From: Deltaproteobacteria bacterium | Lineage (GTDB): Bacteria; Desulfobacterota; Syntrophorhabdia; Syntrophorhabdales; Syntrophorhabdaceae | Assembly (NCBI GenBank): GCA_022711595.1 | Contig: JAKLET010000014.1 | Span: 60,215 to 92,214 of the forward strand | Length of the DNA: 32,000 nt | Reading direction: 5' to 3' | Shown here: piece after piece, positions 1,720 through 31,909 of the stretch | How the letters are laid out: each line of letters starts with the position of its first letter | Numbering within the stretch: the stretch's first letter is position 1 | The notes under the pieces: model-generated | Databases searched by the model: none | Told to the model about the DNA's origin: nothing | The model's input: the letters and a program-made list of their open reading frames with translations, nothing else | Position numbers and translations under genes: made by a program

Positions 1720-2664
1720 TCATTTTCTCATAAGCATTGCCCCGCTTGAGTAGCCGCCGCCGAAGACGGTCACCACGATGATGTCATCTTTTTTGAATCT
1801 TGCCCGGTTCTGCGAAAGGCAGATAACTGTGCTGGCACAGCCCGTGTTGCCTGTTTCTTCAATAATGGAGACCACCTTGCTGTCGTCCATTCCGAGGGTC
1901 TTTGCAACGCGGCTGATTATGCGCGCGTTGGCCTGATGGGGGACAAGATGGTCAACGTCTTTGGGCTGGAGGCCGTTGCGCTTCAGTATGTCCTTTGCCT
2001 CCGATGCCATGAACTTGGAAGCATTGGCGAAGATGTCCCGCCCGTGGGGCATCTTCAGTCCGCCTTCATTAGGCCGTAAATATACCCCGTCGATGCCCTT
2101 GCCGATATGGCCGAGGCCCGACGTGTGCACGTCGACTATTTCAATATCTTCTTCCGAAAACCGCTCTTTTGAGATGAGGACCGCGCCGGCCCCGTCTCCC
2201 CAAAGATGGCCGGAGTGCTCGTCGGAGTCGTCGGTATAGGCGAAGTTGTGTTCGGAGGCAATGACAAGGGCCTTTTCCGCCTTGTTCAGTGCAAAGTACC
2301 CTTCAACTATCTCAACGGCGTTTATGAACGATGAGCATGCCGTCGTGATGGTCACAGCTCTGGCCGCAGGTATTTCAAAATGGCTCTGGACAGCGTGGGC
2401 AAGCGTTCCAATGGTGTCGTAAGGGGTGTACGTAGCACCGACGATGAGATCGATGTCGGACAGGAGATAAGGCAGGTCGACGGTCAGGGCCCCGACGGCC
2501 TCTATGGCCATGGTATTGGCGTTCTCGCCGCCGCTTGCCTTTGCCCTTTTCTTGATCCCCGATCTCTTGAATATCCATTCATCGGTAAGTCCGTTCAGGC
2601 GTGTGTAATATATATTGCCGATGATTGTTTTGGGCAGATAATGCGATATTGCGTTAATAAACAT
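1720..2664 (-). CDS. 3-oxoacyl-ACP synthase III (KAS III, FabH-like)
   Basis: 314 aa. The KAS III catalytic triad contexts are present: TACSSFINA (Cys), VPHQANARI (His) and TGNTGCAS (Asn). The N-terminus (ISHYLPKTIIGN) is typical of FabH. Confidence 0.85.
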   Translation of the reverse strand: MFINAISHYLPKTIIGNIYYTRLNGLTDEWIFKRSGIKKRAKASGGENANTMAIEAVGALTVDLPYLLSDIDLIVGATYTPYDTIGTLAHAVQSHFEIPAARAVTITTACSSFINAVEIVEGYFALNKAEKALVIASEHNFAYTDDSDEHSGHLWGDGAGAVLISKERFSEEDIEIVDVHTSGLGHIGKGIDGVYLRPNEGGLKMPHGRDIFANASKFMASEAKDILKRNGLQPKDVDHLVPHQANARIISRVAKTLGMDDSKVVSIIEETGNTGCASTVICLSQNRARFKKDDIIVVTVFGGGYSSGAMLMRK

Positions 2665-2696
2665 ACCGTGTCACTTCCAAAATGGTATTTCAATAA

Positions 2697-2717
2697 AGCC
2701 CCCAATGTATGGGGGCT
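2697..2717 (-). terminator. Perfect 8-bp GC-rich hairpin (agccccca / tgggggct, 5-nt loop)
   Basis: The hairpin was read directly. On the minus strand it is followed by TTTATTGAAAT. It lies between the flavoprotein stop (2806) and the FabH-like start (2664). The U-tract is weak. Confidence 0.35.
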
Positions 2718-2730
2718 GGGAAATCAAACA

Positions 2731-2751
2731 ATGCTTCCAATATGGAAGCAT
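2731..2751 (-). terminator. Perfect 9-bp hairpin (atgcttcca / tggaagcat, 3-nt loop) followed by a T-rich tail on the minus strand
   Basis: On the minus strand the hairpin is followed by TGTTTGATTT. On the plus strand no T-run follows, so the polarity matches minus-strand transcription. Confidence 0.45.
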
Positions 2752-2805
2752 CTGAAGGGATAGTGTAGCAGTATCGCTGGAAAATATCCACTATACTTAT
2801 CGAAA

Positions 2806-4398
2806 TTATTGGGATGCCGCTGAAAGTATCCGCAGTTTCTGGTCTTTTGCGCAGAGCAGTTCGCTTGGCCGGGATCCCAGGATCGAAGCCGCCAGGAAAA
2901 GCCCGGATGTCGTTGCCCCGGCCACACCGTGGCCGAGGGTGCTTGCCCCGCAAAGGCAGAGGCCCTCTATTTCCGAGAACTGCCTGAAACTGAAAGGGCC
3001 GATCTGCCCCAGGGTCTTTTCGGTCCCGTAGCAGGCCCCGCAGGTGGAGCCAACGAAGTGATCGTTGGTGAGAGGAGTACTAAGTTCGCTAAAGACCACA
3101 TGGTTGTTTATCCCCGGAATGATGCGTTCAAGCGAACTCATTATGGCCGTTGAGATCTTCTCCTTGAGAGCCCGGTACTCCCGTGGTCTGTTGCCGAACG
3201 TAAAACCGGCATATGCGCTGAATGCCTCGTAGGTGAGAAAGCGTACGACCTCGATGGTATGGAGGCCCTTCGTGAAGCTGCCCGGGTCTTTTATGGTGGT
3301 TATGCCGAAGAAGATGCTCGGAAGCGGGTCGTTGACCGTGTCCGGGTCCTGTGCCCCGGCATAGATCAATTCAAGGTCGCCGTGGGGCGCGTACCAGTAA
3401 TTGCCGGAATCCATACCCATGGATGCAAGGTCAAGGTCCGTTGCCAGAAAGAGGACCACGGCCGCTATCGAATAGCGTGTGCGATCCAGTTTCCGCTTGA
3501 GGCGGGAGCTCAAGTTTTCCCGGCCCACAAGGCGCTCATAGGTGACATGGGGACTGGCGTTTGAGATCACCCGGCTGGCGCGAAGCTCGGCGCCGCCCTC
3601 TATGCGGACACCGATGGCATGCCGCCGGTCGCCTCTGCTTTCAATAAGTATCTTTTCAACCGGTGTCGACAGGCGGATCTCCCCGCCCCTTTTTTGCAGA
3701 CCGGCGATAAATGCCTCCGGAATGGAAGAGCCGCCTCCGGCGGGGTAACAGGCCCCGTTGGTGTAATGTCCTGCCACGGGGGCGTGCATGATGAAAGGGA
3801 TCCTGGAGGGGGGTAATCCATGGTCGCCGCACTGTATCGAGAGGAATGTCCGCAACAGGGGATCGGATGTGTAATAGCGCAGAATGGTTTTAAGACTGCA
3901 CAATCCAAAAAGGCCCATATGCCTGGTCCTGTACGGGATGGTAAGAAATTCCAAAAAGCCCCTGGTTTCGGGGATCAGCGCCATCTCTCTGTTGACAAGG
4001 CCGAGGAGCTCGAAATAACCGCCGATCCCTCTGGCCTGGCGGGGAAACCGCCTGCTGAAGCGTTCCACAATGGCATCCACGCCGGCGGGCAGGTCAAAGG
4101 TCTCATCGCCGATGCGGTAATGTTCGAATCCCTGCGGGTTCATCTCGTAGAAGGTCAGGTCGTTTGCTACGCCGAGCCCTTCGTAGATCTCGCGAAGCGA
4201 ACCGCCCGGGCCAAGCTGGCCGACGTAATGAATGCCGGGGCTGAAACGGAAGCCTCCACGCCGGAAACTGTGGCACAGCCCGCCGGGCACCGTGTGCCGC
4301 TCCAGAACAAGCACGCGCTCCCCCGCCCGGGCCAGGGCCAGGGCTGCGGCAAGCCCCCCGGCGCCGGAGCCTATGACTATTGTATCGGCATCAAGCAT
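2806..4398 (-). CDS. FAD-dependent oxidoreductase, phytoene desaturase (CrtI)-like family
   Basis: 530 aa. The N-terminal dinucleotide-binding motif is IVIGSGAGGLAAALALARAGERVLVLE. Length and internal motifs are typical of the CrtI/amine-oxidase fold. AAGGAG lies 4 nt upstream of the ATG at 4398. Confidence 0.75.
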   Translation of the reverse strand: MLDADTIVIGSGAGGLAAALALARAGERVLVLERHTVPGGLCHSFRRGGFRFSPGIHYVGQLGPGGSLREIYEGLGVANDLTFYEMNPQGFEHYRIGDETFDLPAGVDAIVERFSRRFPRQARGIGGYFELLGLVNREMALIPETRGFLEFLTIPYRTRHMGLFGLCSLKTILRYYTSDPLLRTFLSIQCGDHGLPPSRIPFIMHAPVAGHYTNGACYPAGGGSSIPEAFIAGLQKRGGEIRLSTPVEKILIESRGDRRHAIGVRIEGGAELRASRVISNASPHVTYERLVGRENLSSRLKRKLDRTRYSIAAVVLFLATDLDLASMGMDSGNYWYAPHGDLELIYAGAQDPDTVNDPLPSIFFGITTIKDPGSFTKGLHTIEVVRFLTYEAFSAYAGFTFGNRPREYRALKEKISTAIMSSLERIIPGINNHVVFSELSTPLTNDHFVGSTCGACYGTEKTLGQIGPFSFRQFSEIEGLCLCGASTLGHGVAGATTSGLFLAASILGSRPSELLCAKDQKLRILSAASQ

Positions 4399-4415
4399 GC
4401 TACTCCTTTAAAAAA

Positions 4416-4548
4416 CCGTTTCAGCCGTTTCGGCCGTTAAAGGCCCCGGTTCTTTTTTTGTTTTTCCCGTTGAAACGATTGAAACTGCTGAAACTCTTCT
4501 TTTTTTGTTTTTCCCGTTCAAGCATTCAAGCGGTTCAAGCATTCAAGC
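4416..4548. repeat. Composite intergenic repeat block: CCGTTTCRG x2.5, TGAAAC x3 (9-nt period) and TTCAAGC x4 (8-9-nt period)
   Basis: TGAAAC occurs at 4471, 4480 and 4489. TTCAAGC occurs at 4517, 4525, 4534 and 4542. The array at 4416-4438 is an imperfect inverted copy of 4468-4496 (about 17 of 22 positions). Confidence 0.8.
4451..4518. repeat. Perfect 21-nt direct repeat tctttttttgtttttcccgtt, two copies (4451-4471 and 4498-4518)
   Basis: Read directly. Each copy is immediately followed by a different short-period array. Confidence 0.9.
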
Positions 4549-4568
4549 CGTCTTTATCTTTCCTTTGG

Positions 4569-4597
4569 TTGACATCTCATTATTGAAGTGCTAAGAA
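4569..4597 (+). promoter_or_regulatory. Candidate sigma70-type promoter for the methyltransferase-like gene
   Basis: A consensus -35 TTGACA lies at 4569-4574. After a 17-nt spacer there is a weak -10, TAAGAA, at 4592-4597, about 85 nt upstream of the CDS. Confidence 0.25.
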
Positions 4598-4681
4598 ATA
4601 CCTGAACTTCGGGAAGCCCTGCGTGAGAGGGCGTGTCAGGCCGGGGGGCAGTTCAATTTCCGTTTTTAAGGTTTCCTATCG

Positions 4682-5497
4682 GTGCGAAGATTACACTTGT
4701 TCGAGATGAGTGACGCTAAATGGTGCCCGCCTTCTCTGCGCGGCATCGTTACAGATTATATACAGTTCGGCGTGATGATGTGGAGGATGGATGTCGAGAT
4801 GGCCTCTCTTCTGAGGCTGACATTGGAGCGCCTCGGCGTGAATGAGGTGGTCGATCTGTGTTCCGGCAGCGGAGGGCCCTGGTTTCGCGTGCAGTGGATG
4901 ATGGAGAAGGAGGGATTTCCCGTCAAGGTCTGGCTCACCGATAAATATCCCAACGCGGCGGCGCTCACATTTGCCCGAAACGCATCCGGCGGCAAATTTG
5001 ATTTCTGCTCCGAGCCTGTCGATGCCACCAGGGTTCCTGAAACCCTTGGCGGTTTCAGGACTATTTTTTCGGGTTTCCATCATTTCCGGCCCGGGGAGGC
5101 CCGTGATATCCTTCGGGATGCGGTGGATTGCCAACAGGGGATCGCCATATTCGAGATAACAAAGCGGACGGCGTGGTCAATGCTCAATTTCGCCGCCACA
5201 GCCTTGCTCGTGCCTCTTTGTGTACCTTTATTGAGGCCTTTCCGGTGGTCAAGGCTGTTGTGGACCTACCTGTTCCCTGTCGCAACGCCGGTCATCCTCT
5301 TTGATTCACTGGTGTCCTGCCTGCGAAGTTATTCCATCACCGAAATGAGAGGGATGACGGAAGGTCTTGACGCGAAGGGTTATACGTGGGAGGCCGGGGA
5401 GATCAAGCCGCCTCATTCGCCCGTTCCTATCACGTTCCTGGTGGGATATCCAACAAAAAACAGTTTGAAAGTTTATGAAGCGTTTGAGAGTTTGTAA
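4682..5497 (+). CDS. Putative class I SAM-dependent methyltransferase-like protein with hydrophobic C-terminal segments
   Basis: 271 aa. A glycine-rich motif-I-like sequence VVDLCSGSGGPW is present. Hydrophobic stretches (AWSMLNFAATALLVPLCVPLL, LLWTYLFPVATPVILF) follow it. The start is ambiguous (GTG 4682 or ATG 4706). This is the only plus-strand gene inside the minus-strand block. Confidence 0.4.
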   Translation: MRRLHLFEMSDAKWCPPSLRGIVTDYIQFGVMMWRMDVEMASLLRLTLERLGVNEVVDLCSGSGGPWFRVQWMMEKEGFPVKVWLTDKYPNAAALTFARNASGGKFDFCSEPVDATRVPETLGGFRTIFSGFHHFRPGEARDILRDAVDCQQGIAIFEITKRTAWSMLNFAATALLVPLCVPLLRPFRWSRLLWTYLFPVATPVILFDSLVSCLRSYSITEMRGMTEGLDAKGYTWEAGEIKPPHSPVPITFLVGYPTKNSLKVYEAFESL

Positions 5498-5654
5498 GGC
5501 GTTAAAAAAAAGAAAATCTTTATAAACCGAAGAAACAGAACAAACCATATAAACTGAAAAAACCCAAAAGACAGTTTGAGAGTTTGTGGACCGTTTCAAG
5601 TTAAGAAGGAGCTTTATTCCTTTCTGCTTTCAAACGTTCAAACTTTAAACTTTG

Positions 5655-5799
5655 AAACTGTTTTTAGTGCAGTTTACGCCTTACGCTTCACGCCTTACGC
5701 CTCACGGTCTTTAGAAACGGCTGGAACTGTTTACGCCTTACGCTTCACGCCTTACGCCTCACGGTCTTTAGAAACGGCTTAAACTGTTTTTAGTGCAGT
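5655..5799. repeat. 107-bp repeat-filled segment bounded by a perfect 19-nt direct repeat (aaactgtttttagtgcagt at 5655-5673 and 5781-5799)
   Basis: The two 19-mers are identical when read directly. The right copy contains the stop codon and last two codons of the minus-strand gene 5790-6872. Confidence 0.85.
5672..5779. repeat. Tandem duplication of a 51-nt unit (57-nt period) made of five heptads plus cacggtctttagaaacggct
   Basis: gtttacgccttacgcttcacgccttacgcctcacggtctttagaaacggct occurs at 5672-5722 and again, identical, at 5729-5779. Confidence 0.9.
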
Positions 5800-6872
5800 A
5801 TGACCGAGGCCAGTTCTCCCTCCCCGCCGATCGTGATGCAGTCGATTTTATCGTCGCCCAGGGGCCTCTCCGGCATGTCCGCGCATCCGCCGGCTCCCGG
5901 CGAGGGGAAAACTTTTCCGTTCATTCTTGATATTGCGGCTATGGCGATATCGAACGCCTGGCCTGTTGGGAGGCTCCCGTACAGCGGGGTGTAACAGGTT
6001 GTCGGTACACCGCCGGGAAGATGGTTCTTGTAGTAGCTGCTGAATGTCATGTTCCCGTCGGCGCCAATGAAAAGTCTTGTTCCCTGGGCTGCGCCGATCT
6101 TTCCTTTGCCGCATCTGCCTATCAGGATATCCTCGATGAAGCCGTAGGGCGAGGCTGTTTCCTTCCCTTCGGCGGTGAGCAGGAAGAACACTGCCCCTTC
6201 TCCCGGTATGGCACTCTGCATGTTGAACTCAAGGGGCCTCATTTCGTGAGGGGCAGCCGCTTTCTCGCCGTAGAAACGATGCCAGCAGTAGCCCAGGACA
6301 TCGCAGTATTCATCGACAGTGCCGAACAGGACAGAGTCGACCCGACCCTCTTCAAGCCAGCTTCGCGCCGCGAGAAGAGCCGAAGCGGCGGACATTTCGA
6401 ACTGACTGACTGTTAGTCCGGGACCTGTTATGTCAAGAAGCATGGAGATGCTTGCCGCTGCGGCATTGTGAACGGAGCTGGAGAAGCAGGTCGGTGAGGA
6501 AAAGGAGTCACTCTGGAGCAGGAAGGAATCGAGAAAGTCATAGGTGGTGTGAGCGGCACCATAGCCTGTGGCGACGATGACACCCATCCTGCTGTGGTCT
6601 TCCTCAAGTTTTCCGGCCTCTTTAAGCGCGAGATGCGATCCCAGGAGGGCCATTTTCGAAAAATGATCGATGCGGCGCAGGGCCCTTTTGTTGACGAAAT
6701 CTTCGAGCCTTGATGTGTCAGCGAGATAGACAGGTATTTCAACGGGCCCGCGTGTTGTTTTGACAGCGGCCCTCCCGGGTTCGCACCGGCCGCTGTGAAG
6801 AGCTGACGCCAGAGCGTCCGTTCCGCAGCCGAAACCACCCACTGCACCTATTCCATTGATGGCGATCTTCAT
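5790..6872 (-). CDS. Beta-ketoacyl synthase-like protein lacking the active-site Cys and both His residues (chain-length-factor-like partner)
   Basis: 360 aa. The N-terminus is KS-like (KIAINGIGAVGGFG). The Cys position reads SQFEMSAASAL instead of xACSSx. No HGTGT or GHxxGAAG motifs are present. Its ATG overlaps the upstream KS stop (ATGA). Confidence 0.7.
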   Translation of the reverse strand: MKIAINGIGAVGGFGCGTDALASALHSGRCEPGRAAVKTTRGPVEIPVYLADTSRLEDFVNKRALRRIDHFSKMALLGSHLALKEAGKLEEDHSRMGVIVATGYGAAHTTYDFLDSFLLQSDSFSSPTCFSSSVHNAAAASISMLLDITGPGLTVSQFEMSAASALLAARSWLEEGRVDSVLFGTVDEYCDVLGYCWHRFYGEKAAAPHEMRPLEFNMQSAIPGEGAVFFLLTAEGKETASPYGFIEDILIGRCGKGKIGAAQGTRLFIGADGNMTFSSYYKNHLPGGVPTTCYTPLYGSLPTGQAFDIAIAAISRMNGKVFPSPGAGGCADMPERPLGDDKIDCITIGGEGELASVILH

Positions 6873-8080
6873 GACAAAACCTCTTTCTTCCCGAAGACCA
6901 GGACCCCGTTATGACCGCCGAAGGCAAGCGATTCAGAGACGGCCACATTGCCTGGGATAGACATTTCACCGGTCACGGGGGATGAAGGCAATTCGGGGTC
7001 GGGTGTTGTAAACCCGGCGCTTGCGGGTATTGCCCCCTTTTCGAGACAGGCAACGGTGAAAGCGGCCTCGATGGCGCCCGCTGCGCCGAGGGTATGTCCT
7101 GTGTAGCCTTTCGTTGAGAGAAAAGGCACACCGGGCATCATGTCGCAAAGAACATGCGATTCCACGCGGTCGTTGTCCGGGGTGCCTGTACCGTGCGCGT
7201 TGACGAAAGCCACGTCGGGTGCAGAAATGCCGCAAGCGGCCAGTGCCTCCCCGACAGCCCGCCGAAGCCCCCTGCCTTCGGGATGAGGCGCGGTCAGATG
7301 GTAGGCATCGCAGGACGCCCCGTAACCGAGGACGAAAGTGCGGTTCTGTACGCCCCTTTCCTTTTTTGAGTCTTCCGATTCAAGGACCAGCATTGCGGCT
7401 CCTTCGCCGAGATTGAGCCCCCTGCGGTCCCTGTCAAAGGGTTTGCATGGCCCGCTGTCGGTGATCATGAGCGATATGAAGCCGTTGCAGGCAATATGGC
7501 TCAATTCGTCGGCGCCGCCCGCAAGCACTATGTCGCACAGGCCTGACCTGACCCACATGGCCCCGATGCCTATCGCGTCGGTGCTGGAAGAGCAGGCGTT
7601 GACAACGGTCTGAAGGGGGCCGGTAAGTTCGAGTTCTCTCGCAATGACGGATGCCGGGTTGCTCTGAAGGTACATGGTGATCGCGGCCAGATCAGGGTCC
7701 TGGTCTTCCAGATATGCCCGGTAAAAGTCCGCGTTGTTCATCACGCTGCCCAGGGTGGTGCCCATGCAGACGCCTACCCGTTTTGATTTAAGCCGCTGCC
7801 TGTCAAGTCCGGCGCAGGCAATGGCCTCAAAGGCAGCCTTGAGGCCGAGTTTGCCTGTGCGCGATATGTCCGGCGTGTTAATTATCGCCAGCGATGTGAG
7901 ATCGTCGGCAATATTGAAGACCGGATACGTGATGGCATGACTGGAGGTGAACCTCATGGGCGGGCCCAGCTTTCTTTCACCCTTGAAGAGGGACTCCATG
8001 CATTCAGCGAGGTTGTTCCCGGGGGCGCATATGCAGCCCACACCTGTTATGGCCACAGGGGTAGGGGGGGCGTTGTTCAT
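6869..8080 (-). CDS. Beta-ketoacyl-ACP synthase I/II (FabF-like)
   Basis: 403 aa. The motifs VVNACSSSTDAIG (Cys), NAHGTGTPDND (His) and GYTGHTLGAAG (His) are present. It has an ATGA overlap with the upstream ACP gene. Confidence 0.9.
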   Translation of the reverse strand: MNNAPPTPVAITGVGCICAPGNNLAECMESLFKGERKLGPPMRFTSSHAITYPVFNIADDLTSLAIINTPDISRTGKLGLKAAFEAIACAGLDRQRLKSKRVGVCMGTTLGSVMNNADFYRAYLEDQDPDLAAITMYLQSNPASVIARELELTGPLQTVVNACSSSTDAIGIGAMWVRSGLCDIVLAGGADELSHIACNGFISLMITDSGPCKPFDRDRRGLNLGEGAAMLVLESEDSKKERGVQNRTFVLGYGASCDAYHLTAPHPEGRGLRRAVGEALAACGISAPDVAFVNAHGTGTPDNDRVESHVLCDMMPGVPFLSTKGYTGHTLGAAGAIEAAFTVACLEKGAIPASAGFTTPDPELPSSPVTGEMSIPGNVAVSESLAFGGHNGVLVFGKKEVLS

Positions 8081-8331
8081 TGAGCGATCCTTTCTTCCAC
8101 ATAAGCGGCCAGCGTGTTGATGGACTGGAAGGCCGCCTTGCCTTCTTCGAGACTTTTTACCTCGACGCCGAAATGCCTCTCCAGCAAGACCACGATCTCG
8201 ACAGCATCCAGAGAATCGAGACCCAGACCTTCCCCGAAAAGGGGTGCGTCGTCCTCGATGTCTTCGGGACTGATCTCCTCCAGGTTCAATTCTTCAATGA
8301 TGATCTTTTTGAGTTTCTCCTTAACCGTCAT
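8077..8331 (-). CDS. Acyl carrier protein
   Basis: 84 aa and acidic. It carries the phosphopantetheine attachment motif GLGLDSLDAVEIV. Confidence 0.9.
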   Translation of the reverse strand: MTVKEKLKKIIIEELNLEEISPEDIEDDAPLFGEGLGLDSLDAVEIVVLLERHFGVEVKSLEEGKAAFQSINTLAAYVEERIAQ

Positions 8332-10518: not shown

Positions 10519-10532
10519 AAGTGGTAAAGGCG

Positions 10533-10648
10533 GCTTGAACCGCTTGAATGCTTGAACGGCTTGAATGTTCAAAAGAACATTTTTAAAAGATGAATATTTT
10601 ATTGTTTCTGACGCTCAAGCGGCTCAAGCGGTTGAAACGGCTCAAGCT
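10533..10648. repeat. Inverted pair of short-period arrays (GCTTGAA x4 at 10533-10565; GCTCAAGCG-type 9-mers x4 at 10613-10648) around a 47-nt AT-rich loop
   Basis: GCTTGAA occurs at 10533, 10542, 10550 and 10559. The 9-mers have an exact 9-nt period at 10613, 10622, 10631 and 10640. On the minus-strand RNA, GCUUGAGCCG can pair with CGGUUCAAGC (9 Watson-Crick pairs and 1 G-U). The right array overlaps the radical SAM stop codon at 10642-10644. Confidence 0.8.
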
Positions 10649-21744: not shown

Positions 21745-21999
21745 CTACTGCATTTCATGTTTTTTGCCTATAACGAAATTGTGTATATCACCCAGTGTGC
21801 GGATGGCCCGGATGGTTTCTTCCTCGCTCATCTTGAAGTTGAAGGCTTTTTCGAGCACGATCACCATGTCAACCCTGTCAAGGCTGTCAAGGCCGAGGTC
21901 GTCCTTCAGGACGGCACCGGGGATCATATCATCGATGTTGAGTTCAAATTCGTTGGCGAGCGTGTTATCAATGAGCTCGATAATTTCCTGATCAGTCAT
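21745..21999 (-). CDS. Acyl carrier protein
   Basis: 84 aa. It carries the motif DLGLDSLDRVDMVIVLE. Confidence 0.9.
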   Translation of the reverse strand: MTDQEIIELIDNTLANEFELNIDDMIPGAVLKDDLGLDSLDRVDMVIVLEKAFNFKMSEEETIRAIRTLGDIHNFVIGKKHEMQ

Positions 22000-25919: not shown

Positions 25920-25995
25920 GGTGTCCTTTCGATCATGGCGCTTGTTTCCCGCATGGTTAAGGTTAATCTATCATTAAAAAAAGGCATTTCCAATA

Positions 25996-26892
25996 TTATA
26001 TTGAAGCGCTGTAAAGACACGGCTCGTGTTCATTTTCTGATGGCCCTGCGAAGCTTCCGTAAGCCTCCTTGAGGGGGCCGAACCTGAAACGGCTTGCCAG
26101 CTCGGCAAGATAACGGCGGTACCTGCCGAAGTACATCCCATAGAGCGTGGCGGCAAGGGAGTGACATTTCCAGATGTTCCTGTTCACGCCCTCGGGGCTT
26201 GCCTCGTAGGGGTGGCAGAAATAATTGAAGGGCAAGCCCTTTTTATTGAGGCTTTTAAAATACCCTATCTGCAAATGTATGGGTATATAGGCGCAGAAGA
26301 GGCCACCGTTGAAGGGTATGGCGTTCCCGAAGAACACGAAAGATGTGACCGGTATGACTGTCAGCAGTTCCTTGTAAATGAAGGGCGTCATGTCTGTCGG
26401 TGAGCGCCCGAGGTATTTGAGCAGGCCCGGCTGCGCCGTGTTGTCAATTCTGTAGCCTGCATCTATCAGTTCATCGTATGCCCAGGGGGTGCGCGCCGTG
26501 ATGCCCCAGCTTGGAGAACGGTATGTGCAGACCTCTTTCGAGGTGATGTCCTCAAGCTTTTTTTTACTCATGGTTATGTCGTTGCGAAAATCCTTGCGCT
26601 GGAGGCGCTCCGCGATGATATGCCGGTACCCGTGGGAACCCACCTCATGGTTCGCGGCGGCTATGGCGCCCACAAGCCCGGGGAAATGCTCCGCCACATA
26701 TCCGGGTATGAACATGGTGGCCTTGAGGCCAAGGTCGTCAAGGAGCCCGAGGAGGGTGTATGTCTCCTTCTCGACGAGGTATTCCGACAGGTGACTGGTC
26801 CCGTTCTTCATGTCCAGGCTGTAGGCAAGGTCGTCGATATCGAAGCAGAGCGCGTTCGTGATACCCGATGGGACCTGATTCTTCAATGTCAT
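25996..26892 (-). CDS. Polysaccharide deacetylase (CE4/NodB-homology) family protein
   Basis: 298 aa from ATG 26892; the longer ORF overlaps the FabG-like gene. NodB-type motifs are CFDIDD (Asp-Asp), GSHGYRH (His-x3-His) and YRSPSWG (Arg-x-Pro). Confidence 0.65.
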   Translation of the reverse strand: MTLKNQVPSGITNALCFDIDDLAYSLDMKNGTSHLSEYLVEKETYTLLGLLDDLGLKATMFIPGYVAEHFPGLVGAIAAANHEVGSHGYRHIIAERLQRKDFRNDITMSKKKLEDITSKEVCTYRSPSWGITARTPWAYDELIDAGYRIDNTAQPGLLKYLGRSPTDMTPFIYKELLTVIPVTSFVFFGNAIPFNGGLFCAYIPIHLQIGYFKSLNKKGLPFNYFCHPYEASPEGVNRNIWKCHSLAATLYGMYFGRYRRYLAELASRFRFGPLKEAYGSFAGPSENEHEPCLYSASI

Positions 26893-26914
26893 GAATATCT
26901 GTCCGGTAAATGTC

Positions 26915-27643
26915 CTACATGTACGTGCCGCCGTTGACGGCGATGATCTGGCCGGTGATGTAGGCGGCCTTGTCAGAAACGAGAAAACTGACGACATCGG
27001 CGACATCTGCGGGTTTCCCGAGACGTCCGAGGGGGATCATGGGAAGGATCCTGTCCTTCGGCAGGTCATGTGTCATATCCGTCTCTATGAAGCCTGGAGA
27101 GACGGCGTTCACCAGGATGTTCCTCTTTGCGACCTCGGCGGCGAGCGCCTTGGTGGCGCCGATGAGGCCAGCCTTTGCCGCGGAGTAATTGGTTTGACCG
27201 GGCATGCCGCTTTGCCCCGAGGTGGAAACTATGTTCACGATCCGCCCCTGGCGCTTGCGCAGCATATTGACGAGCACCAGTCTGGTGACGAAGAAAAACC
27301 CGTCAAGGGCAACGGAAAGGACGCCTTTCCATTCCCGCTCGTTCATCATGGCCATGATCGTGTCCTTTGCGTACCCCGCGTTGTTTACAACAGCGTAAGG
27401 CGTGTCGTTTTCGAGAAGCGGGGTAAGGGCGCTCTTCACAGCCTCGCCGTCTGCAACGTCGAAGGGGAGCAGAAGGCACGATGTCCCCTCTTTTTCGACC
27501 TCTGCGGCCACTCTGGAGGCGGACTCGTGGTCGCTGCGGTAATTGAGCCATATATCGAAGCCGTCACGTGCGAGAGCGGCGGCGATCGCAGCCCCGATCC
27601 CTTTGCTTCCCCCGGTTATCAATGCTATCCTTCGTTTTTCCAT
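26915..27643 (-). CDS. SDR-family 3-oxoacyl-ACP reductase (FabG-like)
   Basis: 242 aa. The motifs are ALITGGSKGIGAAIA (TGxxxGxG), NNAG and the catalytic YSAAKAG (YxxxK). Confidence 0.9.
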   Translation of the reverse strand: MEKRRIALITGGSKGIGAAIAAALARDGFDIWLNYRSDHESASRVAAEVEKEGTSCLLLPFDVADGEAVKSALTPLLENDTPYAVVNNAGYAKDTIMAMMNEREWKGVLSVALDGFFFVTRLVLVNMLRKRQGRIVNIVSTSGQSGMPGQTNYSAAKAGLIGATKALAAEVAKRNILVNAVSPGFIETDMTHDLPKDRILPMIPLGRLGKPADVADVVSFLVSDKAAYITGQIIAVNGGTYM

Positions 27644-27699
27644 TGTTTTATGACCCTTTTAAAGGCAGGCTACCGCCATTTACGGGTTTTTTAGCCCGC

Positions 27700-27728
27700 A
27701 TTATGATGATGCTCTAAAGATTTTTCAG
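27700..27728 (-). promoter_or_regulatory. Candidate sigma70-type promoter for the long minus-strand operon
   Basis: On the minus strand, CTGAAA (-35) is followed by a 17-nt spacer and CATAAT (-10). This lies about 55 nt upstream of the FabG-like ATG. The match is by eye only. Confidence 0.3.
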
Positions 27729-27771
27729 GTGTCGTCATTTCAATCAAAAGCGACTGGAATGTTCAGGGTGC

Positions 27772-27780
27772 TGATATAAT
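27772..27780 (+). promoter_or_regulatory. Extended -10 promoter element TGATATAAT
   Basis: A perfect TATAAT is preceded by TGn. The -35 is poor. If used, it implies a leader of about 260 nt before the plus-strand radical SAM gene. Confidence 0.3.
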
Positions 27781-27970
27781 CCTACATTTGGCTTCAAATC
27801 GCAACAAAAGACAAAACACTTTCATCAGGCATATAGAGTCACGGGTTTTCTCCCGGTCACCATTGATCAAAGTCCCGTTTTTCAACGGTTAAAATTTTCT
27901 GAAATATTAACAAAATCTGCCGCTTTTGGCAAATTGCGCCAGGTCCGTCAGCCAACGTTCCATTTGTCCC

Positions 27971-28000
27971 TTGACTAAGTGCGGACGTATATATTATTTT
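27971..28000 (+). promoter_or_regulatory. Candidate sigma70-type promoter proximal to the plus-strand operon
   Basis: TTGACT lies at 27971-27976. An AT-rich -10 region follows (TATTAT at 15-nt spacing, TTATTT at 17 nt or TATTTT at 18 nt). It is about 50 nt upstream of the ATG at 28048. Confidence 0.35.
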
Positions 28001-28047
28001 AACCGAAAAAAACAAAGAAAAGGCAAAATAATCAATGGTTAGGTCGA

Positions 28048-29346
28048 ATGAAGATCCTCCTTGTCAATCCTCCCAATTGCGGGCGTAGCATCCCCGAGGA
28101 ACAATACGGCATAGACTCGCTGAAACAGATAATGCGGGCCGAGCCCCTCTCGCTTGAGGCCCTTGCGGGAAACCTTGACGAACATGAGGTAAGGATCGTC
28201 GACCTGAAGGCGCAGCCGGACACATTCGGAGAGGCCCTTGCCGGTTTTGCTCCGGACATTGTGGGTATTACCGGTGTTACCTGTGAGGCGAACACCATGC
28301 TGAAACTCGCGTCAGAGGTAAAGCGGGAGAGTGAGGCCACGGTCGTCGTAGGCGGCGTCCATGCAAGCAATGATCCGTCCTTCTTTAACAGTGCTGATAT
28401 AGATTTCATTGTGGCAGGTCTTGGGAAGAAGAGCTTTCGGGTACTGGCAGAGGCGCTGCGGTCGGGAAAAGGAGCTGATGAAATTCCCGGGGTCACGAGG
28501 ACAAATCCCGGGGGGAGCATTTCCCTCGCGCGGAGGAAATGCTCCGGTGAAGACCTTGTAGACGACAAGCCGCCCCGCTATGACCTGGTGAACATGTACA
28601 GGGAACATTATTTCCTGGAATCGTTAAATTTACAGTTCGGTCTTGTTTCCGTCGCCTTCGGTTGCCCTTACCGCTGTTCTTTCTGCTCTATTCATCATAT
28701 CACGGGGGGAACCTATCTGACTCACAGCACGGCTGCGGTTCTGCGGGACATCAGGATATTTGCGGACCTGCCGGCGGTGATCCGCCTTGTCGATGCCAAC
28801 ACCTTCGGAGATGCCGGACATGCCCGCTGCCTTGCCGGTGAGATCATAAAGGCAGGCATAAAGAAACAGTTCGTAGCAGACGTGCGTTCCGACACGGTGG
28901 TGCGCCACCCGGACCTCTTCCGGGAATGGAAGGAGGCGGGACTGCGCTCTGTCATCATCGGTTTTGAAGAGGTCGACGACACCAGGCTATCGGAGATCAA
29001 CAAGGTGAACACGGTGGCCGTGAATACCGAGGCCATAGAGATACTTCACGATATAGGCATCACCATCATAGGCGACTTCATTGTTTCACCCGACTACGAT
29101 GACCGGCAGTTCCAATCATTGAGGAACTACCTGGGCGAACACCCCGTCGATCTGCCCATGCTCTCCATACTCACACCGCTGCCCGGAACACCCCTTTACG
29201 AGTCCATGAAAGAGAGGATTGCCATCCATGACCTTGATTTCTATACACTCACCAACGCGGTAGTTCCTACAAACATACCAGAAAAGGCCTTCTACGAGAA
29301 CTATGCGGACCTCATGAGGTCAAGCCATGCAGGGGCAAAATTATAG
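28048..29346 (+). CDS. B12-binding-domain radical SAM enzyme (class B type), copy 4
   Basis: 432 aa. The N-terminus is MKILLVNPP...EPLSLEALAGNLDEHEVRIVDLK. The CxxxCxxC motif is CPYRCSFC. Confidence 0.85.
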   Translation: MKILLVNPPNCGRSIPEEQYGIDSLKQIMRAEPLSLEALAGNLDEHEVRIVDLKAQPDTFGEALAGFAPDIVGITGVTCEANTMLKLASEVKRESEATVVVGGVHASNDPSFFNSADIDFIVAGLGKKSFRVLAEALRSGKGADEIPGVTRTNPGGSISLARRKCSGEDLVDDKPPRYDLVNMYREHYFLESLNLQFGLVSVAFGCPYRCSFCSIHHITGGTYLTHSTAAVLRDIRIFADLPAVIRLVDANTFGDAGHARCLAGEIIKAGIKKQFVADVRSDTVVRHPDLFREWKEAGLRSVIIGFEEVDDTRLSEINKVNTVAVNTEAIEILHDIGITIIGDFIVSPDYDDRQFQSLRNYLGEHPVDLPMLSILTPLPGTPLYESMKERIAIHDLDFYTLTNAVVPTNIPEKAFYENYADLMRSSHAGAKL

Positions 29347-29362
29347 CGAGGTGCAATCTCTT

Positions 29363-30535
29363 ATGGATGTTTATATAACGGATGTTTCTTCTTTTCTTCC
29401 CAATGGTCCCGTGTCGAACGACGATATGGAAAAGGTTCTGGGGGTGGTGGAGCATATACCCACCAGGATCAAAAAGATCGTTCTGAAAAGCAACGATATC
29501 CATTCAAGGTATTATGCTATCGACCCCGAAACGGGAAGACAGACACATACCAACGCTCAGCTCGCCGCCGAGGCGGTGCGCCGCCTTAAGCCTTACGATG
29601 GTTTTTCTCCAGACGACATCGAATGCCTTTGCTGCGGGACGTCCACGCCGGACCAGATCATGCCGGGCCACGGATTGATGGTTCACGGTGAACTGGCAAG
29701 CGGCCCCTGCGAGGTCGTGAGCACATCGAGCATCTGCATATCGGGGATGACGGCATTGAAATACGCTTATATGAACGTGGCGCTTGGCCTTTCGAAGAAC
29801 GCCGTGGCAACGGGTTCGGATCTGGCGTCGGCATCCCTGAAGGCAAGGTTCTATGAGGCGGTCGGCGAGAAGAGAAAGGGCGGGAAGTTCAAGGAAGACG
29901 GAGAAGTGCCGCTCTTCGATACGGTCTTCCTCAGGTGGATGCTTTCCGACGGTGCGGGCGCGGTTTTCATGACGGGCAGCCCCACAGGCGCCGGCGGTGC
30001 CTTGAAAGTTGAATGGATCGAGAATATATCCTTCGCGGGGGAATTCGAAACCTGCATGTACTGCGGGGCGAAAAAGGAGGGGGACGGCCGGGTGACGGGC
30101 TGGCGCGGCTATCCTTCCCCGGAGATGGCCGCACGCGACGGGGCCTTTCTCATCAGACAGGATGTGAAGCTGCTGAACCGGGACATCATGAGGGTCTCTG
30201 TCGAAAAGACGCTGCCCTTTGTCATTGAAAGGCGCGGTCTTTCACCTGCCGGGGTCGATTGGCTGCTGCCGCATTATTCGTCGGGTTATTTCCGGCAGGA
30301 ATACTATGACCACCTGAAGGATTTCGGGTTCGAGATACCCTACGAGAAATGGTTCACAAACTTGAATGACAAGGGGAACACCGGATCGGCCTCAATGTAC
30401 ATAATCCTTGAAGAACTATTCCATTCGAACAGGATAAAGAAAGGCGACAGGATACTCTGCTATATTCCCGAGAGCGGAAGGTTCTCCGTCTGTTACGTCA
30501 TGCTGACAGTGGTGCGGGTCCCATCTGTTTCCTGA
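29363..30535 (+). CDS. KAS III-like (FabH-family) condensing enzyme, long form
   Basis: 390 aa from ATG 29363. An alternative ATG at 29327 would overlap the radical SAM gene by 20 nt. The N-terminus is FabH-like (VYITDVSSFLPNGPVSND). Cys lies in STSSICISGMTAL, His in LLPHYSSGYF and Asn in KGNTGSASMYI. Confidence 0.7.
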   Translation: MDVYITDVSSFLPNGPVSNDDMEKVLGVVEHIPTRIKKIVLKSNDIHSRYYAIDPETGRQTHTNAQLAAEAVRRLKPYDGFSPDDIECLCCGTSTPDQIMPGHGLMVHGELASGPCEVVSTSSICISGMTALKYAYMNVALGLSKNAVATGSDLASASLKARFYEAVGEKRKGGKFKEDGEVPLFDTVFLRWMLSDGAGAVFMTGSPTGAGGALKVEWIENISFAGEFETCMYCGAKKEGDGRVTGWRGYPSPEMAARDGAFLIRQDVKLLNRDIMRVSVEKTLPFVIERRGLSPAGVDWLLPHYSSGYFRQEYYDHLKDFGFEIPYEKWFTNLNDKGNTGSASMYIILEELFHSNRIKKGDRILCYIPESGRFSVCYVMLTVVRVPSVS

Positions 30536-30797
30536 CATAGCCTGCCAGTGTCTTTACGGTTCTGAAGATCACCCGGCTTGATTCCTCCAGGCTTATCCTC
30601 ACGTTGTATTTCTTCTCCACGGCCACGGCGATCTCCACGGCATCGAGCGAATCCAGTCCGAGGACGGAATCGGGGCCTATGAGCGGGTCATCGGGAGAGA
30701 AGTCGTCCTGCACGGGATCGGATATCCTGCATATTCCAACGATCATCTCCAGCAGTTCCTTTTCAAATTCCAGCCCAGGTTGTTCGAACAGTTTCAT
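30498..30797 (-). CDS. Acyl carrier protein (longer, N-terminally extended)
   Basis: 99 aa. It carries the motif VLGLDSLDAVEIAVAVE. GGTGGA lies 7 nt upstream of the ATG at 30797. Its 3' end overlaps the convergent KAS III-like gene by 38 nt. Confidence 0.8.
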   Translation of the reverse strand: MKLFEQPGLEFEKELLEMIVGICRISDPVQDDFSPDDPLIGPDSVLGLDSLDAVEIAVAVEKKYNVRISLEESSRVIFRTVKTLAGYVRKQMGPAPLSA

Positions 30798-30895
30798 TAG
30801 CCATCCACCTTATTTCGTCAATTTTTTTCTTAAAAATCCTTTGCGGCATATGTGAACCACGCCGGGATCGTTTCCCGTGAACGGTACCGGGAAAA

Positions 30896-31909
30896 TCATC
30901 GGACGGTTTCAGAGAGGTCACGGAAAAGTCCATGTTCCTTCTCGGCGCAATCGAGGAGGATCTCGCTCAAAAGGTTGAAATTGTCTTTCTCCGACGCCCT
31001 GTCCTTGCATATCCTGGCGCTCGAGGCCGCAAACTCCCTCCACCTGTCGCCGATGACCGTCATCCTCTTTGAGAGATCGAGCAGGCGGTCATCCTTCAGT
31101 ATGGCCGCGGCCTCCTGGAGAAAGGCGGCATACATGAAGCGAAAGCCTCCGCCCCCCGTCCCGAACTCTTCCTGCAGCCTTATGACATTGCCGAGATAGA
31201 GCAGCGTCTTGCGGTTCCCGTGCTTTTCGGGCCAGTTCTTCAGGCTGTTCGCAAAGAATCGGATCCCCCTGGCGCCCATGATCGGGACCGGCAGTTTCAG
31301 CATCACGAAACATGCCTCCTTGATACCCTTGACGACCGCCGCCGCGATGTCGATGTGCCCTGGGGCCCCCATGAAACGAAACATCTTTCCTTTGGGTGAG
31401 AATGTGCCTTTAGAGAAACGGGCCCTTATAAGATCTTCCCTGGTGCAGGTGACGGGTCCATCCATGACAGGATCGCTGATGATGTAGCCATTCCCGCTCA
31501 TGCCATAGGCGATGATGAAGTGGGCGTCGAAATGGATCCTGAAGGCAGGAGGGAAGTAGGGGAGCCAGTAAACGGCCGTCTGGAGGCAGACGGGGATGCC
31601 CCTGCGGAGCATGTCGTCGAGGGCCTCCATGCCCTTTTCGGGGTTTTTGAACTTGACACACTTCACCCCGACCCCGAGGCGCCCGGCAGCGTTCTTCATA
31701 AGCCTTCCCGGAAAGGTGCGGTATGTGATGAGCGGGGAGCCGCTCATCTTGATAAAGGGGAAATAACCGAAGAACACACCTGAACCGATCCCGAAGACAA
31801 GCGCCTCCGAGGCTTTGACGCCGTAGTGGAAAAGGAGGCTGGATGTGGAGCCGCTCTCGCAGTGTGCGGAGATGCGGTGGGTGAAGTCTGTCTTTGCCGT
31901 GTCAGTCAT
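30896..31909 (-). CDS. BtrH-like (BtrH_N/DUF4872-type) putative ACP-dependent acyl/aminoacyl transferase or peptidase
   Basis: 337 aa from ATG 31909. The N-terminal Cys motif RISAHCESGSTSSLLFHYG and the overall length recall the butirosin BtrH family. The assignment is from memory of the family, not from a search. Confidence 0.45.
   Translation of the reverse strand: MTDTAKTDFTHRISAHCESGSTSSLLFHYGVKASEALVFGIGSGVFFGYFPFIKMSGSPLITYRTFPGRLMKNAAGRLGVGVKCVKFKNPEKGMEALDDMLRRGIPVCLQTAVYWLPYFPPAFRIHFDAHFIIAYGMSGNGYIISDPVMDGPVTCTREDLIRARFSKGTFSPKGKMFRFMGAPGHIDIAAAVVKGIKEACFVMLKLPVPIMGARGIRFFANSLKNWPEKHGNRKTLLYLGNVIRLQEEFGTGGGGFRFMYAAFLQEAAAILKDDRLLDLSKRMTVIGDRWREFAASSARICKDRASEKDNFNLLSEILLDCAEKEHGLFRDLSETVR

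Follow-up and report, generated by a model that had tools for sequence, protein, structure and literature searches.

What product would come from a locus that joins the genes of an aryl polyene (APE) pathway to four B12 (cobalamin)-binding radical S-adenosylmethionine (rSAM) enzymes in an anaerobe? We addressed this question for a stretch of 32,000 nucleotides on contig JAKLET010000014.1 from a Syntrophorhabdaceae bacterium, referred to here as the window, which contains most of a biosynthetic cluster of ~37 kb. The open reading frames (ORFs) of the window were listed and 30 of them were scanned against Pfam and NCBIfam. An initial annotation had described the locus as an APE-like lipid cluster rebuilt around the four rSAM enzymes and two CrtI-like flavoproteins. 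We favour the view, at a probability of roughly one half, that it encodes an anaerobe's aryl polyene/flexirubin-type outer-membrane lipid pathway, in which both the chains and a resorcinol module would be tailored by cobalamin enzymes. For two of these, rSAM2 and rSAM4, methylation is the most likely chemistry as judged from their nearest relatives.

Clusters of this type have been on record since 2009; NCBIfam has a model and antiSMASH a class for them, and no product has been assigned. The combination of ketosynthase (KS), acyl carrier protein (ACP), radical SAM and phytoene desaturase genes, which the initial annotation had linked to ladderane synthesis in anammox bacteria, is indeed found in the literature in that role (PMC2649909). 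In 2009 Rattray reported that the fatty acid synthase (FAS) clusters of Kuenenia are syntenic with clusters of Desulfotalea psychrophila, Geobacter and Pelobacter, the shared genes encoding rSAM enzymes, phytoene dehydrogenase-like proteins, Cys-less FabF paralogues, a glycosyltransferase and a deacetylase (PMC2649909). Since then, 'ladderane' clusters of unassigned function have turned up repeatedly in metagenomic surveys, among them clusters of Desulfobacterota, Omnitrophota, Verrucomicrobiota and other phyla (PMC9902471; PMC11968836), and in a 2026 review the enzymology is still given as unknown (PMC13459092). Our literature search on TIGR04072 and 'ladderane BGC' (biosynthetic gene cluster) returned genome-mining surveys only. 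The statement that homologous clusters have no established product therefore holds up to 2025-26 (PMC9902471; PMC11968836; PMC13459092).

An aryl polyene-type core and its export genes

Coordinates are those of the window, and genes lie on the minus strand unless marked with a plus sign. The core contains two pairs of a ketosynthase with a Cys-less partner. KS_A (6869-8080), an ApeO-like enzyme (PRK09185, 291 bits), is paired with CLF_A (5790-6872), which resembles the ApeC chain-length factor (CLF) and matches only the N-terminal ketoacyl-synt domain. The second pair is formed by KS_B (15489-16643), recognised through domain scans and the KS alignment, and CLF_B (14776-15492), a weak ketoacyl-synt match. 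Two further ketosynthases are KS_C (21992-23227), of the PRK09116 type (411 bits, cutoff 470), and the FabB-like KS_D (24699-25919; PRK07967 FabB, 381 bits, below cutoff). Alignment of the six KS-fold proteins bears out the four Cys-His-His enzymes and two Cys-less partners of the initial annotation: the triad is intact in KS_A, KS_B, KS_C and KS_D, and neither CLF_A nor CLF_B has the active-site Cys or either His; the position of the Cys reads SQFEMSA in CLF_A. The PDB matches of KS_A include 6qsp_A from Xenorhabdus (171 bits). PDB 9s5h also ranked high for KS_A and CLF_A; it may be the anammox amxFabF heterodimer and is not used as evidence here.

ACP_A (8077-8331) is an ApeE/F-type carrier protein (PRK09184, 80.1 bits, cutoff 70) whose best PDB match, 9ls6_A, scores 61.7 bits against ~35 bits for FAS ACPs, and ACP_B (21745-21999) was identified by Pfam PP-binding. 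The ApeI-like (17097-17480) and ApeP-like (20511-20954) dehydratases (DH) belong to the precomputed Pfam families PF22818 and PF22817, respectively, and the former has a weak PDB match to 6qsr_A from Xenorhabdus. A FabG-type ketoreductase (KR; 26915-27643), ApeQ/FlxB-like and the first gene of the long operon, scores above the cutoffs of FabG models and reaches 312 bits with FlxB_rubin_SDR (cutoff 340). An ApeK-like thioesterase of the 4HBT fold (16619-17080; Pfam 4HBT_2) completes this set. For lipid assembly and export the window encodes an LpxL-like, ApeD-like acyltransferase (8394-9320; Pfam Lip_A_acyltrans), an ApeJ-like GT2-DUF2062 glycosyl/acyl transferase (9313-10518; Pfam Glycos_transf_2 and DUF2062) that resembles the polyprenyl-phospho-GalNAc synthase PpgS (81 bits), an ApeM-like MMPL/RND exporter (17477-19855; Pfam MMPL; HpnN/HAE3-like), a LolA-like periplasmic carrier similar to ApeL and flexirubin LolA2 (19858-20511; Pfam LolA; LolA2_flexi 95.6 bits, cutoff 125), a PlsC-type acyltransferase (20968-21738; Pfam Acyltransferase) and, from a domain scan, a CE4 polysaccharide deacetylase with DUF3473 (25996-26892).

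The APE core set of Grammbitter et al. 2020 consists of apeO, apeR, apeC, apeE/F, apeI, apeP, apeQ and apeM, and in the window we find KS, CLF, ACP, two DH, KR and the MMPL transporter. The lipid-anchoring and export set is complete, with ApeD-like, ApeJ-like GT2-DUF2062, ApeK thioesterase and ApeL LolA-like proteins. Assignment of the core to the aryl polyene family is supported at the sequence level because of the ApeI/ApeP Pfam families, the ApeE/F-type ACP and the Xenorhabdus matches 6qsp and 6qsr, and because KS/CLF pairs and the MMPL, LolA, GT2-DUF2062 and LpxL-like genes are also present. The ape-family gene content recognised in the initial annotation is thus recovered, including its single ketoreductase, two dehydratases and one thioesterase, on which the Pfam and NCBIfam scans agree, the LpxL-like, PlsC-like, GT2-DUF2062, MMPL and LolA-like genes, all found by domain scans, and three ACPs, the third of which lies on the minus strand at 30498-30797.

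No enoyl reductase (ER) of the FabI/K/L/V type was found among the window ORFs, and no AMP-binding, ammonia-lyase or chorismate-utilising domain for activation of an aryl starter in the window ORFs or in ~10 kb of flank on either side. The tyrosine ammonia-lyase (TAL) FlxA and the 4-coumarate ligase FlxY are likewise absent from window and flanks. The sole gaps between genes are four short ones (1259-1720, 4398-4682, 5497-5790 and 27643-28048), and therefore there is no space for an enoyl reductase or aryl-activating gene. The absence of both had been noted at the outset.

Compared with the APE clusters of E. coli CFT073, Xenorhabdus doucetiae and Acinetobacter baumannii, the locus shares the KS/CLF heterodimer and further KS, the ApeE/F-type ACP, the ApeI/ApeP pair, the FabG-type KR, the thioesterase, and the LpxL-like, GT2-DUF2062, MMPL and LolA-like genes, and both are without an ER. 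Unlike them, the window has neither the ApeH ligase nor aryl-starter genes, and there is no ApeB-type gene in the operon. It has instead a second KS/CLF pair, an insertion of rSAM3-rSAM2(-rSAM1) between CLF_B and GT2, CrtI-family flavoproteins, the CE4 deacetylase and a dialkylresorcinol module, all in an anaerobic host. In Xenorhabdus the end products of APE clusters are glycerol-phosphate-GalNAc lipids bearing an aryl polyene together with a second acyl chain, a conjugated C26:5, and they are assembled by ApeD and ApeJ (bioRxiv 10.1101/2020.12.19.423268). The presence of two ACP systems together with the LpxL-like and GT2-DUF2062 genes fits such an assembly of APE-lipids, and the CE4 deacetylase may possibly fit it too.

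A predicted dialkylresorcinol module and a flexirubin-like architecture

The right-hand end of the cluster is, by its family matches, a dialkylresorcinol (Dar) module, made up of DarB, DarH and an ACP, with DarG and an ABC transporter beyond the window. DarB (29327-30535, +) is a head-to-head condensing ketosynthase of the DarB/StlD family (NF005293, 531.7 bits, cutoff 450); with the narrower resorcinol_DarB model it scores 440 bits, under the cutoff of 550. It had initially been counted as one of two KAS III enzymes. The other of these, at 1720-2664, does hold as a FabH-like KAS III and putative chain-priming enzyme (Pfam ACP_syn_III and ACP_syn_III_C; NCBIfam PRK09352, 230 bits, cutoff 249), with its C-H-N triad (ACSS/HQAN/GNTG) intact. 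DarH (30896-31909), a BtrH-related acyltransferase, matches NF053550 at 424.9 bits (cutoff 300) together with Pfam BtrH_N and DUF4872, so that the gene annotated as BtrH-like is present and corresponds to NCBIfam DarH. The ACP of the cassette, ACP_C (30498-30797), carries the motif LGLDSLDAVE (Pfam PP-binding, 31.8 bits); an overlapping ORF on the plus strand, 30604-30855, is not the ACP. The window end cuts DarG, leaving its C-terminal end (31902-32000), and the full 133-aa protein, mostly outside the window and read from a longer JGI contig (locus L085), scores 143.9 bits with DarG_fam (cutoff 70).

On longer contigs the cluster extends a further ~6.6 kb beyond the window end. Genes for an ABC permease and an ABC ATPase accompany two to three tandem DarG-DarH-ACP units there, and a PAS/His-kinase gene comes after them. 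The tandem units encode a DarG of 133 aa, a DarH of 337 aa and an ACP of 100 aa and are 71-100% identical (L085:12451-20555, equivalent to window 30498 to ~38600). There are three DarH copies in the JGI 3300010429 assembly and two in the NCBI contig of the metagenome-assembled genome (MAG), a difference that could be either real variation or assembly collapse.

Polysaccharide deacetylase, PlsC-type acyltransferase, LolA, glycosyltransferase and exporter genes are all part of the published flexirubin cluster (PMC3992019), and in Azoarcus the dar cluster has a BtrH-like gene alongside genes for an ACP and an ABC transporter (PMC3949708). Taken with the Dar module, this gene content leads us to a flexirubin-like overall architecture, predicted to combine a polyene type II polyketide synthase (PKS), a dialkylresorcinol module and outer-membrane export. 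We considered and rejected the CE4 and BtrH-like genes as novel insertions; both are canonical flexirubin/dialkylresorcinol (DAR) parts, and their initial description as additions does not stand (PMC3992019).

Flexirubin (Chitinophaga pinensis, Flavobacterium johnsoniae) and arcuflavin (Azoarcus BH72) are hybrids of a polyene and a dialkylresorcinol. The cluster studied here has in common with theirs a polyene type II PKS joined with DarB, DarH, DarG, ACP and ABC transporter genes, and with flexirubin the deacetylase, acyltransferase, LolA, glycosyltransferase and exporter. The flexirubin-derived NCBIfam models DarB, DarH, FlxB and LolA2 match window proteins, the DarG model matches the full-length protein from L085, and the FlxY model is matched only by a ligase in Desulfobulbales relatives. 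The differences are the lack of DarA, TAL and FlxY, the HpnR-like B12-rSAM enzyme standing in the place of DarA, and the presence of three more B12-rSAM enzymes and two CrtI-like genes.

DarA is an aromatase acting on carboxy-cyclohexanediones. In characterised systems darA and darB are neighbours (PMC3992019; PMC3949708; PMC6836626). In the window the gene upstream of DarB, and overlapping it, is rSAM4 (28048-29346, +), and no protein of the window or flanks matched a family named DarA, although whether NCBIfam holds a DarA model was left unverified. The nearest characterised family of rSAM4 is, by profile score, the hopanoid C-3 methylase HpnR, far under the cutoff (194.5 bits, cutoff 650). 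Homologues of rSAM4 are 57-70% identical across Desulfobacterota. Of 80 metagenome loci retrieved with an rSAM4 alignment, 76 extend far enough for the neighbour to be seen; in at least 68 of these rSAM4 is directly followed by DarB, and at least 68 of the 76 have no DarA beside DarB. The same pairing occurs in the isolate Desulfuromonas versatilis, at a Geobacter locus (L077), in a Desulfobulbales MAG and in a MAG labelled only 'Proteobacteria bacterium', and its habitual partners are ACP, ABC permease, ABC ATPase, DarH and DarG. As in the DarAB/StlCD systems, the DarB-family enzyme scores above the family cutoff and has an adjacent ACP; unlike these systems the window is DarA-less, and unlike the DarA-less DarB homologues of cyanobacteria, whose product is unassigned (PMC6836626), its DarB is paired with a conserved B12-rSAM enzyme. 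A search of the open literature returned no paper joining dialkylresorcinols with radical SAM enzymes, the matches being unrelated cyanobacterial papers only.

In the Desulfobulbales relatives, rSAM4-DarB is preceded by genes for a FlxY-like acyl-CoA ligase (408 bits, cutoff 520) and for a SPASM radical SAM protein resembling AhbD/NirJ (L090:7616-9972 and L091:7601-9957). The window has neither; the ligase is probably the 'phenylacetyl-CoA ligase' of Rattray's figure. In Desulfuromonas versatilis a gene for a PagL-family lipid A deacylase is found between the Dar cassette and CLF_A/KS_A (L089:18822-19379), a position that is a further tie to outer-membrane lipid remodelling.

Could the locus make two independent products, a free dialkylresorcinol or cyclohexanedione (CHD) signal or antibiotic from the Dar cassette and a separate APE-like lipid from the long operon? 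An ABC transporter of its own and a separate strand and operon organisation set the cassette apart, several metagenome loci have no APE-like gene within 8 kb of it, and DARs and CHDs act as free signals in other bacteria. We nonetheless regard this as unlikely. The cassette abuts or interleaves with APE-like genes at L089-L091, L095, L096, L104, L112, L139, L151 and L161, and DarH is of the ACP-dependent acyltransferase type, which suits a joining step. Flexirubin and arcuflavin themselves are esters of a DAR with the polyene (PMC3949708; PMC3992019). A joint flexirubin-type lipid remains our preferred product.

The cobalamin radical SAM enzymes

All four rSAM proteins contain the CxxxCxxC motif and score above cutoff with Pfam B12-binding, in agreement with the four class-B-type genes first annotated; for Pfam Radical_SAM only rSAM3 falls short of the cutoff. 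The motif is 100% conserved among orthologues of rSAM1, rSAM2 and rSAM3. We also considered whether the four are recent paralogues and rejected this, their mutual identity being only 20-26%.

The enzyme with the clearest relative is rSAM2 (12133-13485), a 'lipid biosynthesis B12-binding/radical SAM protein' (TIGR04072, 627.4 bits, cutoff 360) and TsrM-like. After TIGR04072, NCBIfam ranks BzaD and the TsrM family highest for this protein, and both methylate aromatic sp2 carbons. A PDB search with a profile built from relatives of rSAM2 matched TsrM with 163 bits (E 7e-47), profile positions 1-156 aligning to TsrM 1-154. The AlphaFold2 (AF2) model of rSAM2 (predicted local distance difference test, pLDDT, 84) has TsrM as its best Foldseek match (template modelling score, TM, 0.81-0.84, E 3e-27), against TM values of 0.64-0.70 only for the other B12-rSAM structures AprD4, MgmA, OxsB, TokK and CysS. 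TsrM (PDB 6WTE/6WTF) is therefore the best match of rSAM2 by both profile and fold, and the order of B12-binding and rSAM domains is the same. Within the rSAM2 family R69 is invariant in the segment YVGISLRNID, where the other three rSAM proteins have Thr, Val or Met, and by co-linear numbering it would correspond to Arg69 of TsrM. That residue is positioned below the corrin in TsrM; every TsrM orthologue has it, and methyl transfer to the substrate depends on it (PMC8992657). The two proteins differ in that identity is only 23-24%, in that rSAM2 is without the ~120-residue C-terminal extension of TsrM, and in their substrate, which is free tryptophan (C2) for TsrM and would have to be a lipid or acyl-ACP for rSAM2. 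Since rSAM2 is closest to TsrM, a non-radical C-methylase, a role as cobalamin-dependent C-methyltransferase is favoured over that of a radical ladder-forming cyclase.

The other two enzymes of the long operon stand further from known families. rSAM1 (10642-12114; Pfam B12-binding and Radical_SAM) is HpnJ/BchE-like, with 175 bits for NCBIfam HpnJ and 170 bits for BchE, both below cutoff. Its motif reads CPYACSYC, and C291, C311 and C415 are also conserved in 96-100% of 28 orthologues; these extra cysteines suggest an auxiliary Fe-S cluster. No NCBIfam model covers rSAM3 (13485-14747; Pfam B12-binding, 39 bits). In 59 orthologues of rSAM3 the CxxxCxxC motif is invariant, as are 103 residues overall, and together with rSAM1 it is the most conserved protein of the cluster, with a median identity across phyla of 64% compared with 35-50% for the PKS enzymes and 29% for the flavoprotein CrtI_B. 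In a library clustered at 50% identity just two representatives, 60% and 50% identical, stand for the full-length rSAM3 orthologues, and the next relatives are set off from them at 40% or less. An NCBIfam scan of its nearest non-orthologous relatives gave only weak BchE/HpnJ-type matches, from which no function could be inferred. One of the representatives in the library, P0457 (1210 aa), is an MMPL/HAE3 transporter fused to a B12-rSAM domain 36% identical to rSAM3; by analogy, the fusion hints that rSAM3-like enzymes act on lipids at the exporter.

The high conservation of rSAM3, with its 103 invariant residues and no characterised relative, raises the question of whether the B12-rSAM enzymes, above all rSAM3 and rSAM1, form C-C bonds on the polyene by radical chemistry and so give a new carbocyclic lipid other than a ladderane. 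The families nearest to rSAM1, HpnJ and BchE, include a cyclase in the latter, and the three additional cysteines would also be in keeping with such a role. CrtI_A (2806-4398), a CrtI/carotenoid isomerase-family flavoprotein, has the carotenoid isomerase model as its best family match (TIGR02730 carot_isom, 162.6 bits, below cutoff; crtI_fam, 148 bits, also below; CrtI 4dgk, 61 bits, as the only notable PDB sequence match) and could set the polyene geometry for cyclisation. Against this, most characterised class B rSAM enzymes are methylases (PMC8992657), as are the nearest characterised relatives of rSAM2 and rSAM4, and no unusual carbocyclic lipid has been reported from cultured carriers in the open-access literature searched. 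We consider radical carbocyclisation unlikely and continue with methylation of a flexirubin-type lipid.

The CrtI_B module

The second flavoprotein, CrtI_B (23209-24702; Pfam Amino_oxidase; CrtD, 95 bits), is a divergent member of the CrtI/CrtD family and is translationally coupled between KS_D and KS_C. Both CrtI-family flavoproteins and the CE4 deacetylase named initially are thus present by domain scans. KS_C lies directly downstream of CrtI_B in at least 13 of the 17 related loci in which this position is within reach. On the 235-kb JGI contig CrtI_B is called as two fragments of 133 and 333 aa and not as 497 aa (L085:5162-6655), which may be either a frameshift variant in the population or an assembly error.

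Tight coupling and recurrence of the whole module, FabB-like KS_D-CrtI_B-KS_C-ACP_B-PlsC, in a cluster without enoyl reductase are what one would expect of an oxygen-independent route to unsaturated or polyunsaturated fatty acids (PUFAs), or to hydrocarbon precursors, for ordinary membrane lipids. In this proposal of Rattray's the CrtI-like proteins are acyl desaturases or isomerases and KS_D elongates their products; D. psychrophila does make C31:8 and C31:9 polyunsaturated hydrocarbons (PMC2649909). However, the dedicated set of MMPL, LolA, GT2-DUF2062, LpxL-like and CE4 genes typifies outer-membrane APE/flexirubin lipids and not bulk phospholipid, and a Dar module is attached. In other bacteria, moreover, C31:9 hydrocarbons derive from Pfa/Ole genes. 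The route is in our judgement distinctly unlikely, and for the module too we keep to an exported lipid of the flexirubin type.

Conservation across phyla

To see how widely this arrangement occurs, 185,579 species genomes were scanned with the rSAM2 alignment. At least 585 GTDB species genomes encode an rSAM2 relative; they belong to more than ten phyla and are mostly anaerobic bacteria. The ORFs of the best 80 loci, none of them from an anammox organism, were classed by their best match to window proteins, and the counts that follow use the 37 loci with full 10-kb flanks. A recurrent order, PlsC-ApeP-LolA-MMPL-ApeI-thioesterase-KS_B-CLF_B-rSAM3-rSAM2-(rSAM1)-GT2-LpxL-ACP_A-KS_A-CLF_A, is seen in Desulfobacterota, Lentisphaerota, Verrucomicrobiota, Omnitrophota, Planctomycetota, Calditrichota, Bacillota, Spirochaetota and Acidobacteriota. 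Four or more APE-core genes surround rSAM2 in 34/37 loci, and the LpxL-like gene (33/37), GT2-DUF2062 (31/37), rSAM3 (29/37) and the 4HBT thioesterase (28/37) are common companions. rSAM1 is found in 12 of the 37. The FabH-like gene occurs in none, CrtI_A in one and the methyltransferase-like gene described below in two, and these three are lineage-specific.

These counts change the picture of a cluster rebuilt around four rSAM enzymes. Two of them are core, rSAM1 is present in 12/37 loci and rSAM4 is part of the Dar cassette. The possibility, raised with the initial annotation, that the rSAM and CrtI-like genes are lineage-specific insertions is not borne out for rSAM2, rSAM3 and CrtI_B; it does apply to CrtI_A and in part to rSAM1.

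With the Kuenenia stuttgartiensis and Desulfotalea psychrophila/Geobacter/Pelobacter clusters the window shares multiple FabF paralogues including Cys-less ones, B12-rSAM genes, phytoene desaturase-like genes, a glycosyltransferase and a polysaccharide deacetylase (Kuste3351), and the gene order of a Desulfotalea MAG (L041) is the same as in the window. A TIGR04072 protein embedded in type II FAS/PKS genes, as in the 'ladderane' class, is found here too, in a host other than an anammox organism. Genuine ladderane lipids, with concatenated cyclobutane rings formed by CrtI-like and B12-rSAM enzymes turning a polyene into a ladder, are very improbable even though rSAM2 is a full member of the NCBI-named rSAM_ladder_B12 family and the combination of KS/CLF, phytoene dehydrogenase (PDH) and B12-rSAM is that of the anammox proposal, given a Syntrophorhabdaceae host that is not an anammox planctomycete, rSAM2 relatives in at least 585 species of many phyla when ladderanes are reported only from anammox bacteria, the likeness of rSAM2 to the non-radical methylase TsrM, a syntenic cluster in D. 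psychrophila in which no ladderanes were detected (PMC2649909), the expression of 34 Kuenenia candidate genes in E. coli without ladderane formation (PMC4790861), and the shift of anammox work to the six-gene Cluster I (amxACP, amxFabZ, amxFabF2/mut, PDH and B12-rSAM), described as unique to ladderane producers (bioRxiv 10.64898/2026.05.19.726425). The 'ladderane' label in genome mining is probably wrong outside anammox bacteria.

A proposed pathway

For the aryl polyene/flexirubin-type pathway that we favour, the following steps can be envisaged. The FabH-like enzyme would prime chains from an acyl-CoA, with no ligase needed; a possible starter is an aryl-CoA from the aromatic catabolism of the lineage. 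On ACP_A and ACP_B the ER-less type II system would then assemble acyl chains, conjugated or partly unsaturated, and CrtI_B, placed between KS_D and KS_C, may isomerise or desaturate the chain bound to ACP_B. The core pair rSAM3-rSAM2 would tailor the chain, rSAM2 most likely as a cobalamin C-methyltransferase of the TsrM kind that delivers a methyl group to a nucleophilic sp2 carbon, a radical cyclase being unlikely. The chains may be placed on a glycosylated (amino-sugar) lipid anchor and moved to the outer membrane, as in the Xenorhabdus APE-lipids. In the Dar module DarB would join two fatty-acyl precursors to a carboxy-cyclohexanedione, rSAM4 may either C-methylate the ring or its precursors or replace DarA anaerobically, and the DarH/ACP/DarG units could acylate or link the product.

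Several points weigh against this proposal. As no product is known for any member of the family, we infer every chemical step, and as there is neither an aryl-activating gene nor DarA, the labels 'aryl polyene' and 'resorcinol' cannot be taken for granted. The equivalence of R69 in rSAM2 with TsrM Arg69 comes from numbering and not from a residue-level alignment, the likeness to TsrM does not exclude radical chemistry, and rSAM3, without a characterised relative, could carry out a key step other than methylation. CrtI_B is very divergent, at a median identity of 29%. Lastly, the comparison of the window with Kuenenia (kuste3335-3352, kuste3603-3608) runs through the gene order of the Desulfotalea locus L041 and published synteny.

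More tentatively, it is possible that the locus represents an undescribed, oxygen-independent variant of flexirubin present in hundreds of anaerobic species, with a ring methylated or aromatised anaerobically in the absence of DarA and an ER-less polyene chain substituted by rSAM3/rSAM2. Such a molecule would be a new lipid class, and its pathway may be the ancestral scaffold of the anammox ladderane pathway. The flexirubin-like architecture, the closeness of rSAM2 to TsrM and the B12-rSAM enzyme in the place of DarA recast the puzzle as specific experiments in cultivable carriers such as Geobacter, Desulfuromonas versatilis and Maridesulfovibrio. The window itself adds one more uncultured member to a family that is widespread and unsolved, and is neither its first nor its most tractable instance.

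Gene layout and surroundings

Proteins of the window are identical to Syntrophorhabdaceae MAG proteins NCBI HOW53155-HOW53179 and are also found in metagenome contigs from anaerobic digesters. From 27643 down to 5790, 23 genes form a single minus-strand operon with overlaps or gaps of at most 123 nt. rSAM4 and DarB are a divergent pair on the plus strand that overlap by 20 nt, DarH-ACP is a convergent unit, and the methyltransferase-like gene stands alone on the plus strand. Of the genes that the initial annotation had described as interleaved in the same translationally coupled operons, only rSAM1-3, CrtI_B and CE4 are so placed, and the remaining added genes are not. The intergenic region between the long operon and rSAM4-DarB (27644-28047, no strand assigned) is a candidate divergent promoter region, in which a consensus scan alone gave five sigma-70-like matches against 1.0 expected from shuffled sequences. 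An Rfam scan of the window found no RNA family, including the cobalamin riboswitch, at gathering thresholds.

The methyltransferase-like protein (4682-5497, +; 271 aa) has a hydrophobic C-terminal half and neither a Pfam nor a PDB sequence match. A class I SAM-methyltransferase fold is nevertheless predicted, in line with the label it first received: motif I is present as VVDLCSGSGGP, and its AF2 model (pLDDT 84) has small-molecule O-/C-methyltransferases of aromatic polyketides as the best Foldseek matches. It has ~4,700 homologues, mostly annotated as hypothetical. At seven of the metagenome loci retrieved with the rSAM4 alignment, homologues lie inside Dar cassettes, between the ABC permease and ATPase. 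A strong terminator-like hairpin with a 10-bp stem followed by a T-run is located within this ORF, and not behind it, at 5035-5060 (+) and may be a chance match.

The FabH-like gene is the left boundary of the cluster. Outward of it follow an SLT-like gene, PRiA4_ORF3 and an MlaEFDCA operon. The first of these (window 9-1259) encodes a 416-aa protein with a hydrophobic N-terminal segment and a weak SLT lytic-transglycosylase domain, and it adjoins the cluster in three assemblies. The operon, a complete MlaE-MlaF-MlaD-MlaC-MlaA set, is located two genes outside the left end of the cluster (L082:12223-16449), and a VacJ/MlaA-like gene, Kuste3352, is also found within the Kuenenia cluster (PMC2649909). 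The proximity of the Mla operon may reflect a link to outer-membrane lipid trafficking, or coincidence.

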